A stretch of DNA of 64,000 nt from an uncultured Methanomicrobiales archaeon (GTDB lineage Archaea > Halobacteriota > Methanomicrobia > Methanomicrobiales > Methanospirillaceae). The stretch spans positions 256,001 through 320,000 of the forward strand of contig CAVWXH010000016.1 in NCBI GenBank assembly GCA_963758915.1. The letters run 5' to 3'. Positions 15,855 through 63,085 of this stretch are shown here, in pieces. How positions within the stretch are numbered: the stretch's first letter is position 1; every line of letters begins with the position of its first letter. A program made the translations under genes and the position numbers. Below the pieces are notes generated by a model. The model searched no databases, was not told the DNA's origin, and worked only from the letters and a program-made list of their open reading frames with translations.

Positions 15855-16068
15855 GGCTCTGTAGAAATCCTCTTAAATCTATTTTGCAGATTGGTGATTC
15901 CAAAATTTCGTCACGCTCCCGGGGCTCATGGCCGCCGCTTTGGCGACCCAGATTGGGATAGAGACTATTCTCCAATACTCTGATTTTTAATGAGACTTCG
16001 GGAAACCCTCTCCCGTCTTCGAATTTCACTCCTATTTGTTATGACACCGAAGGGTTTTCAACAAAGTT
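15855..16068 (-). mobile_element. MITE family copy C (internally deleted)
   Basis: Reverse complement of copies A/B. Ends ggctctgtagaaat and ttttcaacaaag. About 45 bp missing between the two internal GGGTTTC repeats. No clear target duplication. Confidence 0.85.
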
Positions 16069-16246
16069 TAAAAAATCAATAAGTCTATAACAGATGAATC
16101 CTGATGTAAAGTTGTACAAGATCCCTGAAAAATTAATTCCAGTGTTGATTGAGAACGTGTTTCTTATATTATGGTATAGAATAATCAGTTGCTTATAAAA
16201 AACGGGTTTGTAATTCATGTGTTATGCTTCCCGGGAATGATTCACC

Positions 16247-42472: not shown

Positions 42473-42482
42473 GATATCTATC

Positions 42483-42733
42483 TGCTCTTTTTTTTACCAG
42501 GAATAAAAATTCTCAGACAGGAGGTGGTTTCACCCCCTCCCTGCCCCACCCCCGATAAGATATTCATTGGCAGGGTTCAATTGGGATATTCAAGGAAATT
42601 TCAGAGATTTGTAGGTCATTCCCTATCCCAACCGGGGCCGCCAAAGCGGCGGGGCGGAGCCCAGGCCGCGTAAGTAAACTTCAGGAACCAATTAAGACCA
42701 GTAAGGTGGATTTTAGAGGAAATTTACAGGGCC
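42483..42733 (+). mobile_element. MITE family copy D (diverged)
   Basis: Core gacaggaggtggtttcaccccctccctgccccacccc...ctatcccaaccggggccgccaaagcggc, right end aatttacagggcc. Left end degenerate. Lies between convergent genes. Confidence 0.8.
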
Positions 42734-48753: not shown

Positions 48754-49015
48754 GGCTTTGTTGAAACCCTTCGGGGTCAAAAAAAGGAGAGGGAAAGACG
48801 AAGACAGGAGGGGGTTTCACCCCCTCCCTGCCCCACCCCCATTAAGATATTCCTCGGGCAGGGTTTCCCAAAGGCTCATTAAATTCAGAGTATTGGGGGA
48901 TAGTTTCTATCCCAACCGGGGTCGCCAAAGCGGCGGGCCATGAGCCCCGGGAGCGTAGTTTAATTTCAGAACCACCCAAAATCGTTAAAAGTTATTAGAG
49001 AATTTCTACAGAGCC
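48754..49015 (+). mobile_element. MITE family copy A (intact core, 262 bp) with 8-bp target duplication
   Basis: TIRs GGCTTTGTTGAAAC / ATTTCTACAGAGCC (11/14 match). GATTTTTT at 48746-48753 and 49016-49023. Non-coding, between convergent genes. Confidence 0.9.
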
Positions 49016-58329: not shown

Positions 58330-58403
58330 GCCTGTGTGACACAGCCCGGTAGTGTGCCTCCTTGGTAAGGAGGAAGTCGCGAGTTCGAATCTCGCCACAG
58401 GCT
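58330..58403 (+). tRNA. tRNA-Thr(GGT)
   Basis: GCCTGTG TG ACAC AGCCCGGTA GTGT G CCTCC TT-GGT-AA GGAGG AAGTC GCGAG TTCGAAT CTCGC CACAGGC T, with all four stems paired. Confidence 0.93.
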
Positions 58404-58453
58404 TGCTTCAAAAGTGTATCTATAACTTTTTTCTATGAATTATTGGAAATAGG

Positions 58454-58792
58454 GGCTTTGTTGAAACCCTTCGGTGTCATAAAAAATAAGAGGGAAATAC
58501 GAAGACAGGATGGGGTTTCACCCCCTCCCTGCCCACCCCCATTAAGATATTCTTCGGGCAGGGTTTCCCGAAGGTTCATTAAATTCAGAGTATTTTTTGG
58601 TAGTCTCTATCCCAACCGGGATCGCCAAAGCGGCGGGCCATGAGCCCCGGGAGTGTGACAAAATTTTGGAATTCCCAATCTATAAGATAGATTTGAGAGG
58701 AATTCTACAGAGCGTGCTATGAGCCGTTGGCTCATAGATGAGTATGAAAAAGGTCTTCTTTCAGGTGGTTCGTGGAGTTTTTCATACCAGCC
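58454..58792 (+). mobile_element. Composite MITE copy B (core 58454-58714 + module 2 58715-58792) with 8-bp target duplication
   Basis: Core closely matches copy A. Outer ends GGCTTTGTTGAAA and TTTTTCATACCAGCC. GAAATAGG at 58446-58453 and 58793-58800. Confidence 0.88.
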
Positions 58793-58977
58793 GAAATAGG
58801 TTATTAGATCGTTCTGTTCTCTTGGTAATGAACTCATTCTATCATTGGCAAGGTTATCCGCTGGACTGTTTCTACATCTGATATGTAATGAACGGATGAA
58901 CCGTCGGGAATTCAATAGTCTGAAAAAAAGGGTATGTTTTCCATACCTACAACCAGAAAAAAATAAATTTATTCACG

Positions 58978-59841
58978 TCAGTCCTTGTCCCTTTTCCTGT
59001 GATAAATTAATATTACTGTTATCTCCAGGATGATGACAATGACCACAATTACTATGGCATAGAGAAATGACGCACCGATCTGATCATTGTGTGTTGCAGG
59101 AGTTACTACTAGCGTGGGCGGTTGGGAAATCAAGGGATATGTGGTGGGCGTTTGTACCGGTGCAGTTGTCCGGGTCATAACCGTGGTCGACAGTTCTGTC
59201 ACCGTAATATAATCCGTGAGTGTCCTGATATTGGAGCCCCCAGCCCCGGTTACCGTTAATGAGACAGTATAAGTACCGGGAACAGGGTACTTGTGTTCTG
59301 GAGGGTCCTCCAGTTTACTCTGACTGCCATCCCCAAAGTCCCAGTACCATGATGTTGGTGATCCGGTAGAAGATTCGGTAAACGTAACGGTAAGGGGTGC
59401 TGTGCCAGTTGTGGGAGATCCGTTAAACGCTGCTTTTATTGGCGGTGGCGTGGTGTCGGTTAATGCCGGCGTGGTTCCGGTTGGTGCTGGCGTTGGAACA
59501 TCAACTGAAATATACCCGATCTGAACGTTGCTATCACTGAACCCCCCGCCTGTTATGGTTAACCTGACCGAATAAGCTCCCGGAATCGTATAGGTGTGAG
59601 AAGGGTTTTGTATTGTTTCCGTTGCCCTATCTCCAAAGTCCCAGTACCATGATGTTGGAGCACCGGATGACAAATCGGTGAACTGAACTGTAAGGGGGGC
59701 AGGACCTGAAGTAGGTGTGCCGCTAAACCCGGCAACATAGGCTGCACTTACCGGCAGCACAACAACGGCTATAAGGATAAATGTTATCAATATGGTCAAT
59801 AATCTAGAAACCGACGTTTTCAGAACTGGAATACTCTTCAA
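58978..59841 (-). CDS. Cell-surface protein with two PKD domains and a C-terminal TM anchor
   Basis: Signal peptide, two PT.G.APLTV.FT..S.G.PTSWYWDFGD domains, Thr/Pro linker, TM helix and basic tail. Confidence 0.92.
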   Translation of the reverse strand: MKSIPVLKTSVSRLLTILITFILIAVVVLPVSAAYVAGFSGTPTSGPAPLTVQFTDLSSGAPTSWYWDFGDRATETIQNPSHTYTIPGAYSVRLTITGGGFSDSNVQIGYISVDVPTPAPTGTTPALTDTTPPPIKAAFNGSPTTGTAPLTVTFTESSTGSPTSWYWDFGDGSQSKLEDPPEHKYPVPGTYTVSLTVTGAGGSNIRTLTDYITVTELSTTVMTRTTAPVQTPTTYPLISQPPTLVVTPATHNDQIGASFLYAIVIVVIVIILEITVILIYHRKRDKD

Positions 59842-60185
59842 CCCCTTTGTACGGTATGATTCACTGCAAACACTTCCTGATAATGAGGATACCAGTTTCG
59901 TACCATGGTGGTATGTTCCATTTTACACCAGGTCCTTTCTATCCTATAGGATAATTCTCATATCGTTTGACTAGTATTTTATATATCTCTCTAATTTTTC
60001 GGGCAGTGCATGAAATTGTCCTGTGAGTCAGTCCTTCAGGCCTGAATATCCCTTTTGGAATTGATCCGGTTTATCCATTCAAATACTATAAGGTCCTGTT
60101 CCTAATATTCCTGCTACCGGACTGTTACGGGACAACAAATTTCCCGGTCTGACTGAAAAAAGAATGGGGTTACATTCGGATGATT

Positions 60186-60395
60186 TCATCCATAATCAAA
60201 ATCGAAGTCATTATCGTCGTAATCTTCACTCATGGTCCTCCAGATATCCACACAAATCTTCGGGTGTCCACTGCAATAACAATCAACTAAACACTTATAT
60301 CGCAATTCTCCATCAGTACCCACGTACCAATTCAGGTATTCACAAGCTCCATATCTCTCAACATATGCCGCTTCTTCACGTGTTCCATATTGCAT
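60186..60395 (-). CDS. Small Cys-rich acidic protein
   Basis: 69 aa with five Cys and an acidic/aromatic tail. Co-oriented and directly downstream of the CDF gene. Confidence 0.5.
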   Translation of the reverse strand: MQYGTREEAAYVERYGACEYLNWYVGTDGELRYKCLVDCYCSGHPKICVDIWRTMSEDYDDNDFDFDYG

Positions 60396-60441
60396 AGATT
60401 ACACCCGGGATAAGAAGACTAGTCTGATATCCAGGCAGGTA

Positions 60442-61403
60442 TTAATTTTTATCATCTGACGTATTTTTCTCATAATATGTACAGAATGAGCCGCATCTTA
60501 CACAACCCTCGTTACAGGGCTCTACATGAATGGTAACAGTGGATCTCGGGTATTCCAGTCTGAGATCAGCTTCAAGATGGTCCTCGAAATCGTGGGCCAG
60601 CTCCACTGAGAGATCTTTTGGCATCACCAGATGAAAGTCAATGAATATTTCCGGTCCCGCCCGCCGGGTTTTTAATTCATGGAACCCTGCATAATCCATT
60701 GCATGTTCGCAGATTATTTCCTTGATCCGCATTTCATCCGCTTTGGGGAGGCTCTGGTCCATCAGGTCTGAAAGTGACCGCTTTGTCAGGTCGTAGGCGG
60801 CTTTCATAATTACAACGGCAACACAGATAGCAACGATTGGATCAAAGATGGTAATCCCCGTCAGTCGTATCAGGATAAGCCCGAAAAAAACGCCAAGAGA
60901 GGTATATACATCAGTCCGGAGGTGCCAGGCATCGCTTTCAAGGGCGATTGAGTCTGTTTGTTTTGCCACCTTCATCAGCCGTGAAGACACGTACCAGTTC
61001 ACCAGTGCTGAAAAACCCATGACGGCAATACCTGCCATGAGCATTGTGGGGGTGAATTGTTCAGGCTCCTCCCCGAGCAGTTTGTTAACTGATTCGTAAA
61101 TAATCAGGACCGCAGCGATAAAAATAAGCAGCGCTTCGACGAGGCCTGAAATATCTTCGAATTTCCCATGACCAAACGTATGTTCTGGATCGGGGGCTCG
61201 GCGGATTTCCTGACCGCAAAAAATGCGATCACCGCGGCCACCAGGTCCATCATGGAATGTATTGCTTCAGAGATGATACTCACGGAGCCGATGGCCAGAC
61301 CCACAACAAATTTTAATATCACCAGCCCGGTATTAGAGATAATAGAGAGCCTTGCTGTCTTTTCTTTCAGCCTGTCAAGATTTTTTTTATCCGGGTCCGG
61401 CAT
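60442..61403 (-). CDS. Cation diffusion facilitator (FieF-like), split by a frameshift near 61194
   Basis: GSVSIISEAIHSMMD in the 5' ORF. SDAWHLRTD, DP, H.LKTRRAG and IHVEP in the 3' ORF. Adding one base to the G5 run at 61192-61196 restores PPDPEHTFGHGK. Confidence 0.9.
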
Positions 61404-61746
61404 TGTATATGAGTCCTGATATGATATGGGTTGTACAATATTTCAACATATTGAGGCATTGCGGTACAAAACAAGACTCCTAGTATCAATGACCGCCTAA
61501 TCTTGTTAATGCCATGAATATCCGGAATTTGGTGGCCCCGGCCACGATATGATGCTGGCAATCAAACATGTATTCCCATTCCGGTTAACGAAAAATGAGG
61601 TCTATGGAAAAGATATCTCCAGGATATGTTAATTGTGTGGGGTGAGCCAGGCCGATTCACTCCGGAATTCCCAGTGATTTCTTAGCAATTCTTCGTATGA
61701 ATTTTTATTAAACGAATCTTTATTGGATGGGAGATAAATTTTTATT

Positions 61747-62274
61747 ATGTCTTTAATTTTGGACCACATCAGTAAAATCGGTATTACTACCAAAATAAGG
61801 ATTATATCTCTTTTTATCCTGTTGGTCCCGGTTTACTTCTTTACTATCGGTGATTTTTATGGAAGTGGTTTCCAGGCACCTTTTTTCAGGTACCAGGAGG
61901 TATTTTTTGGCTCCTTTGTGGTTTTTATCAGCAATGATGTAAACAATGTCATGAATGGTTTTTTCAAGGGTGCGATGATCCCGGTTGTTATATTATGGTT
62001 TCTTGGTTTTTTATTCCTGGTAGTGAATAGTGTCTTACTATTTGTTGATAAGACAGAATTTAATCGGATTATCAGAAGGAGTGGGATTTTAATGATAATT
62101 TCAGGATTATTTTTCCTGTTTTCAATTATTGTGCATTATGGCCCGCTTTTCCATAATTCATCAGGGATAGCCATCCCTCTCGGTTTACCACTTATTTTTC
62201 TTATTGGGATCTGGATGTACCGGTGGGCGGATAATGATGAAAACAGAGTTAATACGGAACAGTCTGCACTTTAA
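61747..62274 (+). CDS. Four-TM membrane protein, unknown function
   Basis: Four hydrophobic segments, AT-rich coding sequence. Confidence 0.7.
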   Translation: MSLILDHISKIGITTKIRIISLFILLVPVYFFTIGDFYGSGFQAPFFRYQEVFFGSFVVFISNDVNNVMNGFFKGAMIPVVILWFLGFLFLVVNSVLLFVDKTEFNRIIRRSGILMIISGLFFLFSIIVHYGPLFHNSSGIAIPLGLPLIFLIGIWMYRWADNDENRVNTEQSAL

Positions 62275-62519
62275 GTTAGGCCGAAATATTCAAACCCGTC
62301 CTGATTGATGAAATGGAGGTCTATCCGGGAACGGAGAGACTGTTTTGGTATCTGAATGGTGCATAATCAGATATCAGATCTCTTCTCTGAAAAATCCCGT
62401 AAATATTTTACCTGCTCATTTTTCAGTAGGGCCTTTTTTCGTGACTCTCAGTATACGTATGCGAATCCTGTCCGAATGAGTGAACCTTAACCGGTTATCT
62501 GGCAAAAAAGGAATTTCCC

Positions 62520-62952
62520 CGCTGATATGAAAGACTCAGGCAAAACAGTCTGAACTGCCACCTTTTTCATGCTCATCGATGAGCAGACAGCTCATGGAAC
62601 GTTTTGGGTGAAACCATACATAATTAAAAAACTGGGAATACCAGGACAGGAGATGGTGTCTCTCCCTCCGTGTCCAACCCCAGATAAGATATCCTTGGGC
62701 AGCGATTAGATGCTGCATTCCTGAATATTTCTGAAATTCAAAGGACATTCCCTATTACGACCCGGGTCGCCAGAGCGGCCGGGGCGGTGCCGCAGGAGCG
62801 TGAATAAATTTTGGACAACCTTCATTTAAAATTGGCTTTAAGAAAAATTCCCATTTAAATGTCGAACCGGCCACCAATAGAAGAAGATTTCCAAGGATGT
62901 TGTCATAGCCAGGTTGTGTACAATTACGTTCAGGCATGTCTTCAACAAAGCA
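62520..62952 (+). mobile_element. Composite MITE copy E (module 2 62520-62599 + degenerate core + extra segment), near-perfect 8-bp duplication
   Basis: Module 2 is homologous to the reverse complement of 58715-58792. Core motifs ggacaggag..., gataagatat and cccgggtcgccagagcggc are present. Right end ttcaacaaagca. Flanks are AATTTCCC (62512-62519) and AATTTCCG (62953-62960). Confidence 0.7.
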
Positions 62953-63085
62953 AATTTCCGAACATCACACTCCCGGGTGCGTCGGTCCCGTAATATTTTG
63001 ATGAAGACACGATTATTTCAAGGAAGATATAAAATCAGACGAGGTCGATCTATTGTAATAGTTAGGTCATATACCCAGGTGAATA

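Follow-up and report, generated by a model that had tools for sequence, protein, structure and literature searches.

A probable IS110-family miniature at the transposon tips of a Methanomicrobiales archaeon

The window analysed here, a stretch of 64,000 nucleotides from an uncultured Methanomicrobiales archaeon of the Methanospirillaceae (assembly GCA_963758915.1, contig CAVWXH010000016.1, positions 256,001 to 320,000), carries two small transposons, copies B and E, in which the core, a MITE (miniature inverted-repeat transposable element), is joined to an extra piece, module 2. Module 2 is probably an independent, non-coding miniature of about 80 nt, derived from an IS110-family insertion sequence (IS), that inserts with site and orientation specificity at the tips of IS5-type terminal inverted repeats (TIRs). 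It has been gained in situ, holds a fixed register, has spread independently of its partners and shares end sequences with IS110-family elements. The apparent composites are transposons parasitised by a second mobile element. The genome (G000) is represented by a 2.38-Mb assembly of 18 contigs, 94 % complete. Contigs are given as C numbers and the window lies within C16; G006 and G010 are congeners, G006 being the closest.

Copies B and E and their orthologous sites

In copy B an 8-bp duplication encloses positions 58454-58792, that is, the 261-bp core together with a 78-bp extra piece, and in copy E a 433-bp unit (62520-62952) is bracketed by AATTTCCC/AATTTCCG. Both brackets had been noted in a preliminary description of the window and were recovered in a scan for TIRs and target site duplications (TIR/TSD scan). 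The features of the two copies are the following.

58446..58453, no strand: left 8-bp target duplication of copy B, GAAATAGG (TIR/TSD scan, 0 mismatches; C16:314454-314792)
58454..58714, plus strand: core of copy B, a 261-bp IS5-family MITE with TIRs GGCTTTGTTGAA (left) and TTCTACAGAGCG (right)
58715..58792, plus strand: module 2 of copy B, subfamily S1, from left to right end; probable miniature IS110-family element
58717..58737, plus strand: hairpin 1 of module 2, adjoining the TIR tip, with a 9-bp stem and a loop of 3-4 nt
58739..58789, plus strand: hairpin 2 of module 2, arms TATGAAAAA and TTTTTCATA flanking a variable middle
58793..58800, no strand: right 8-bp duplication of copy B, GAAATAGG (sequence and TIR/TSD scan)
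62512..62519, no strand: left duplication of copy E, AATTTCCC (TIR/TSD scan, 1 mismatch)
62520..62599, minus strand: module 2 of copy E, old and diverged, joined to the left TIR of the core (nhmmer, 64.9 bits)
62600..62952, plus strand: core of copy E, a 353-bp diverged IS5-family MITE of the long (B) type (alignment)
62851..62940, minus strand: diverged module 3 within the right TIR region of copy E, between ...TTTC and TACAGAGC (alignment with B-type elements)
62953..62960, no strand: right duplication of copy E, AATTTCCG (TIR/TSD scan)

The module of copy E is the same sequence reversed: positions 5-40 of the copy B module match C16:318595-318560 on the minus strand (BLAST), and alignment placed the two junctions in register. 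As the cores of B and E (families D1 and D3) are co-oriented, with the module on the right of B and on the left of E, the joining at opposite ends is real. An inversion between the terminal repeats, suggested earlier, is not needed to explain it, because a MITE carries one TIR sequence on both sides and offers an identical target at each, so that the module can cap either end. The boundaries of the 78-bp module in copy B are uncertain by 3-4 nt because AGC is present at both junctions.

The hairpin of the preliminary description is present, but the noted ATGAGC-N5-GCTCAT was too short; the actual pairing is GCTATGAGCC-N4-GGCTCATAG with a stem of 9-10 bp. Folded as DNA, module 2 forms two hairpins with -14.4 kcal/mol versus -6.3 +/- 2.1 kcal/mol for 200 shuffled sequences. 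With the structure set by hand, hairpin 1 exhibited weak covariation (6 double changes versus 1.3 in shuffles) and hairpin 2 none; RNAalifold returned no consensus structure for 62 distinct module copies. The arms of hairpin 2 are conserved across genera, the middle is variable.

Resident elements with and without the module were found at orthologous sites. At C3:349946-350023, exactly 80 nt split a TIR-like sequence inside G|GCT; G010 has this sequence without interruption (...ATATAGGCTCTGTTAAAA...). For the module at C9:96399-96477, G010 has the same MITE and the same duplication (CATATCTT/CATATCCT) without the module, while G006 keeps just a 14-nt TIR remnant beside the flank. Insertion of the module adds 78-80 nt and creates no target duplication of its own, the 3-nt AGC/GCT ambiguity being the sole repeat. 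The module lands between TIR tip and flank, therefore the MITE's own 8-bp duplication comes to bracket core plus module. The brackets are thus real, but for repeat annotation a target duplication around two modules is no proof of joint movement. The earlier view that the units moved as composites is not implied by them, since the module was added in situ at these two orthologous loci and, on weak evidence, at locus B. Likewise, the proposed insertion of the core beside the hairpin has to be turned around: the hairpin-bearing module inserts into the TIR.

Empty sites for copy B, called for in the preliminary description, exist in two sources. G006 has neither core nor module at locus B, and a 3542-nt contig of metagenome run X6 jumps from 58453 to 58846, which represents an empty allele; its flanks differ from the window at 9/852 and 17/755 positions, hence a strain of approximately 98-99 % identity. 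A contig of metagenome run X1 joins 58710 to 58789, skipping 58711-58788, and weakly indicates a core without module. Depth, uncovered stretches and loose ends of the metagenome contigs were disregarded as evidence. Copy E is old: G006 has module and core at the orthologous site within the same bracket; module 3 is absent from the orthologous G006 element. Four further sites (C2:126720, C9:201930, C9:87598 and C7:63294) contain too many nested elements and were left unpolarised.

Module 2 and its partners in the genome

The core is an ordinary MITE of about 260 bp from an IS5-family IS, with the TIR GGCTYTGTWGAA and an 8-bp duplication. The affiliation follows from the TIRs, which are common to the core and to an IS5-family IS with transposase. 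A genome scan for the end motif GCT[CT]TGT[AT]GAA gave 287 matches versus 64 in a reversed-sequence control. Thirty-four pairs of left and right ends carry an 8-bp duplication with at most 1 mismatch; their sizes cluster at approximately 260 bp, approximately 355 bp and both plus approximately 80 bp, and 11 of the 34 include a module end. One pair, C6:46019-47110 (1092 bp), holds a 300-codon frame with DDE_Tnp_1 (PF01609), the sole unbroken frame of this domain in the assembly, which matches NCBIfam NF033579 (IS5 family) with 204.7 bits. Compared to eight related copies the frame has one extra base near codon 6, so that the usual start codon is out of frame. This IS bears module 2 at its left end. 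Over 17 nt, the right TIR of copy B agrees fully with the right ends of the IS5-family ISs at 80 related loci. An affiliation to the ISL3 family, guessed from the GGCTCT ends and the 8-bp duplication, was rejected: DDE_Tnp_ISL3 (PF01610) was absent from the assembly and the transposase belongs to the IS5 family. A second IS5-family copy in G000, C3:83226-84488, has its DDE domain in two pieces on opposite strands and internal extra TIR copies; it is a broken or rearranged IS. Three more core MITEs, without module 2, are located in the window at 15856-16070, 42480-42700 and 48754-49015, the last one bracketed by GATTTTTT.

Searched across the 2.38-Mb genome on its own, module 2 gave 49 BLAST matches and 56 nhmmer matches, 46 of them full-length. 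It does occur independently of this core, one of the outcomes considered in the preliminary description, but the junctions are not random: they hold a fixed register. The 13-mers beside the 46 full-length copies were counted by eye, with at most 2 mismatches allowed in 12 nt. Thirty-nine copies adjoin the outer base of a TIR in one register and direction, four more adjoin degenerate TIRs and three none. The capped junction ends exactly at ...AGCG|TGCTATGAGCC. A strict pattern of junction plus hairpin was found 18 times in this genome and not once in a reversed-pattern control, thus the association of module 2 with TIR tips is targeted and not due to chance. Nor is the module tied to the core of copies B and E. 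Partner ends of at least six kinds were observed, including the right and the left end of the core, the long end of the B type, two ends of other MITEs and, on the sole transposase-bearing IS copy, the left end. Of 27 capped TIRs, 26 have AGCG as their last bases; among 104 free ends, AGCC was seen in 70 and AGCG in 27.

Outside the genus, and also in a second family of the order, the same arrangement and register recurred at nine loci; among 18 distinct full-length module copies from other genomes, 17 were located at a TIR tip in one register and direction. The strict pattern is present in 8 of 301 Methanomicrobiales genomes (18 matches here, 1-2 in the others, none in the control), and a species-representative collection yielded 44 pattern loci, 40 with Methanomicrobiales titles. 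Right ends lie at +313 to +335 in three loci of the pattern scan. In G006, C9:52505-52772, the orthologue of C16:183823-183899 in G000, has about 240 extra bp in the middle of module 2.

Module and partner have separate histories. Among 46 module pairs of at least 92 % identity, the partners align up to the junction in 6 pairs only. A single pair, on C12 and C13, has partners at least 95 % identical, and there the flanks are shared as well; the partners of the other 45 are unrelated or much more diverged. Four module copies are 100 % identical, each on a different partner. Conversely, the closest paralogues (97 %) of capped ends are uncapped, and two B-type MITEs of 97 % identity bear different module subfamilies at opposite ends. 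A twin of at least 97 % identity exists for 17 of 46 modules versus 15 of 92 cores, and best-match identities indicate similar age spreads; therefore the argument for independent spread rests on the pairs and not on overall age.

These observations bear on the proposal that core and module 2 form one composite non-autonomous transposon, moved whole by the IS5-family transposase with the outer end GGCTGGTATGAA of the module as alternative TIR. The outer end begins with GGCT like a TIR, module ends take part in the duplication-bearing pairs counted above, and the strain of run X6 lacks all of copy B. Three composites are wholly absent at orthologous sites of relatives: C9:101329-101760, C5:33538-34108 and, missing in both G006 and G010, the IS with module at C6:46019-47110. 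Joint movement may account for these three. However, no composite has been duplicated as a unit, the flank-sharing C12/C13 pair being the only one with matching partners; at orthologous sites, one and the same resident element occurs with and without the module; and an insertion at the boundary of TIR and flank explains the bracket equally well. Joint movement is thereby refuted as the sole origin, it may fit some copies, and as a general account it is improbable. Two related candidates were rejected: an original place of module 2 within the left end of the IS, with no module match in the 80 related IS loci, and a second IS using the outer end of the module as TIR, which was looked for and not found.

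Several observations in and near the window concern other features. The end of a tRNA-Thr(GGT) gene (58330-58403) lies upstream of the copy B duplication, at a distance of 43 nt. At 59329-59733, two repeats of 105 nt with 74 % identity and a spacing of 300 nt are found inside a long minus-strand coding region that looks like it encodes a protein with repeated domains. At a module 2 copy on another contig, C7:67831-67911 (L158), synteny with G006 and G010 breaks exactly at the outer end and the partner TIR is truncated, which may mark a rearrangement breakpoint at a capped end.

Relation to IS110-family elements

Two full-length elements connect module 2 to the IS110 family. At locus L231 (G006:C9) the right TIR of a MITE, ...TTTCTACAGAGCG, is directly followed by CGCTATGAGCCCTTGGCTCATAGATGAGTATGAAAAA, which from GCTATGAGCC onward is identical to the left end of the copy B module in 35 of 36 positions. 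Downstream of this match, about 200 nt more of non-coding sequence precede a recombinase gene, represented by an open reading frame (ORF) at 1477-2184 with DEDD_Tnp_IS110 (PF01548, 100.6 bits) and an ORF at 2135-2716 with Transposase_20 (PF02371, 91.6 bits). The left end of L231 measures about 240 nt, the right end at most 80 nt. The 8-mer of the TIR tip, TACAGAGC, recurs in the left end at 1362-1369, with 0.03 matches expected over the whole locus. The second element, L240, in a Methanoculleus chikugoensis record, encodes a recombinase 68 % identical to that of L231 and was the sole relative from the collection scan; its reading frame, as delimited, contains stops. About 75 nt after the coding region, L240 has ...GGGGTTTTTCATACTAGC, identical in 16 of 18 positions to the right end of the module including the AGC core, and the 40 nt before this sequence show homology to the Methanoculleus-type module. 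It starts at the target type of the Methanoculleus-type modules, ...GCGAAGCG, without an ATGAAAA-bearing module half upstream. From the aligned ends, the miniature of each genus appears to match the ends of its own full-length element.

In the mechanism that we propose, module 2 would combine about 41 nt of an IS110 left end with about 18-20 nt of the right end, the two being joined by a short linker. It would insert after ...ACARAGC, on the strand read toward the flank, into IS5-family ISs and their MITEs. The shared core AGC, present in the target and at the 3' end of the element, would permit insertion without target duplication. Four other such elements behave alike, each ending with the 3-4 nt that also close its left flank; the shared 3' core is GAAA in module 3 and AAA in the IS110-family elements of G010 and G074. 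Presumably, an IS110-family recombinase mobilises module 2 in trans through a circular form and scarless excision, directed by a putative guide (bridge) RNA from the approximately 240-nt left end of the master element, the part that holds the target 8-mer TACAGAGC. Of the family's 61 genomes, 14 have IS110-family genes, as do 4 of another 5 genomes that bear the module; since these genomes are related, the counts carry no statistical weight.

A number of findings weigh against an IS110 origin of module 2. The left and right ends were matched in two different full-length elements and not in one. In L231, the only master found with the left end of the module, a frameshift splits the gene into two ORFs; the right end is degenerate, with two candidates for its position, and the orthologous intergenic region of G000 is too diverged to fix the boundary. 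No other full-length element with this left end was among the 44 pattern matches of the species-representative collection. Despite harbouring most module copies, several of them identical, the G000 assembly (94 % complete) has no DEDD recombinase gene. A comparison of the module 2 ends with the IS110-family element of G010 was not significant, as 297 and 1763 of 2000 shuffles reached the scores. Rfam contributed no bridge-RNA family, its only matches being a tRNA and, below the threshold, one snoRNA. Bridge RNAs described to date read the target on either side of the core, but here its right half consists of variable flank. Furthermore, the core-only allele at locus B comes from one short contig with a side of 23 nt. 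Finally, L231 could be an IS110 element inserted into a pre-existing module after ATGAAAA.

This last point leads to an alternative in which module 2, of some other origin, already resided at TIR tips before the L231 element inserted after ATGAAAA. A precedent is seen in G000, where miniatures of the G010-type element stand directly after YATGAAAA in 18 of 18 cases, and the homology of L231 to the module stops right after TATGAAAAA. On the other hand, the following L231 sequence (CGAGAGCAGG...) is unlike the left end of the ATGAAAA-targeting element (CAGGCATGATGC), and L240 carries the right end of the module with the AGC core beyond its stop codon while beginning at a Methanoculleus-type target that lacks the ATGAAAA half. 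Together with the apparent agreement between miniature and full-length ends in each genus, this renders a separate origin of module 2 unlikely.

As no transposase gene other than that of the IS5 family was detected in the assembly, one may also consider a nick of the IS5-family DDE transposase at the TIR tip, followed by extension of the 3' end on another capped TIR by template switch or short-patch conversion. Such copying would account for the precise register and for G instead of C at the capped tip. Yet mixed TIR variants were not enriched at capped ends (6/27 versus 14/104, p = 0.37), run-off and ligation with 3-4 nt homology would be required in each of about 46 events, and the match between module and IS110 ends is left unexplained; we consider this copying very unlikely. 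Crossing-over inside the TIR was rejected on the same lack of enrichment of the mixed variant (p = 0.37), and the intact brackets exclude reciprocal exchange. That module 2 is a palindrome-associated IS200/IS605 miniature, inserted as single-stranded DNA 3' of AGC by a Y1 (HUH) transposase, would agree with a hairpin near each end, the missing duplication, the single orientation and a 3' end repeating the target, but Y1_Tnp (PF01797) occurs in none of 13 genomes of the genus, this one included, and the module ends match IS110-family elements, so that this origin is hardly credible.

A 338-codon frame at C10:123975-124142 (L149) has a borderline TnpB zinc-ribbon match (26.4 bits, cut-off 26.3), the sole such match in the genome.

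Nested layers and known systems

Module 2 has a sister. The long B-type MITEs are A-type MITEs with an additional module 3 of about 92 nt between ...GTAGAAA and TCC... of the TIR. The genome contains 43 near-full copies of module 3 on several partner types (e.g., C9:120414-120512), and orthologous elements differ in whether they carry it. An IS110-family element of G010, 1574 bp long and itself located inside a module 3 after CCAATGAAAA, is similar to the ends of module 3 (6 and 2 of 2000 shuffles reach the scores). Module 2 and module 3 are not significantly similar by a simple global score. The YATGAAAA miniatures of G000, 18 derivatives of the left end of the G010-type element with 60-105 nt, lie in module 3 or module 2 and form a third nesting layer (e.g., C13:4001-4105 and C9:104659-104764). 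A matching recombinase gene was absent from the G000 assembly.

Tentatively, Methanomicrobiales may thus house a three-tier pile of mobile elements, with IS110-family miniatures as hyperparasites of IS5-family transposons that throttle or re-route transposition. Module 2 would cap the TIR tip, module 3 would split the TIR 13 nt further in, and the third miniature would occupy the ATGAAAA arm of modules 2 and 3. With the cleavage site of the transposase buried or split, movement of IS5-family ISs and MITEs might be throttled or re-routed, and free ends bearing AGCG could be escapees that left via the inner TIR. If this is true, module 2 with its 80 nt would represent a donor reduced by nature to a minimum, used by a guide-RNA recombinase for which the left half of the target suffices, and the capping of TIR tips, which may alter the movement of IS5-family elements and MITEs, would amount to a competition of mobile elements within one genome.

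IS110-family elements have no TIRs, insert sequence-specifically and often into repeats, excise scarlessly through a circle and recombine around a short core, according to the parts of PMC11208160 consulted. The same parts place the bridge RNA of IS110-group elements in the long left end and ascribe to the IS1111 group a short left end, a long right end and subterminal inverted repeats of 7-17 bp. L231, with its long left and short right end, differs from the IS1111 group, and the repeat near the ends of module 2, TATGA/TCATA, measures only about 5 bp. The bridge-RNA recombination of IS621, as presented in these parts (PMC11208160), is paralleled here by specific insertion, a short core in donor and target, the lack of TIRs and scarless presence or absence, as well as by a long non-coding left end upstream of a gene with PF01548 and PF02371 in both. 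A difference from that account is that the left end holds a copy of the target 8-mer only, the right half of the target being variable flank. For ssr9 of ISPpu9 in Pseudomonas putida, the sections of PMC12288879 consulted report a non-coding module that propagates itself via an IS110-family transposase. As far as these sections describe it, ssr9 is a small-RNA gene of few copies that targets REP sequences, while module 2 consists of element ends only, is present about 50-fold and targets transposon tips.

The consulted passages of a 2024 review (PMC10969869) do not mention chimeric, nested or modular MITEs, nor a methanogen MITE of such kind. No description of such elements in methanogens was encountered in the literature searched, which mostly lay outside the subscription journals. 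IS110-family recombinases currently attract interest because they may serve as programmable RNA-guided tools; a donor of 80 nt made of ends only suggests that little DNA is needed in cis, and the target conserved on one side suggests a tolerant reading of the target. The amplification itself, to about 50 miniature copies in a genome of 2.4 Mb, deserves attention.

Mosaic repeats are known from prokaryotes, among them the BIMEs and the BOX elements. The core is an ordinary prokaryotic MITE and the composites are mosaic-like, but here the mosaic arises from the insertion of a second, unrelated system. The closest likeness is with IS4321/IS5075, elements with a DEDD-type recombinase that reportedly, in the work of Partridge and Hall from 2003, enter the TIR of another transposon family at one set site and in one orientation. 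Module 2 also occupies a fixed place and direction in the TIR of other transposons. In contrast to IS4321/IS5075, it is a non-coding miniature of 80 nt with about 50 copies in a methanogenic archaeon, its victims are IS5-family ISs and MITEs, and the insertion point lies at the very tip of the TIR, leaving only 1 nt of the repeat outside it. The full-length relative, too, has the layout of the IS110 group (long left end, short right end) and not that of the IS1111 group. The targeting of one element's terminal repeat by another is thus extended from the resistance transposons of bacteria to archaea and to non-coding miniatures.

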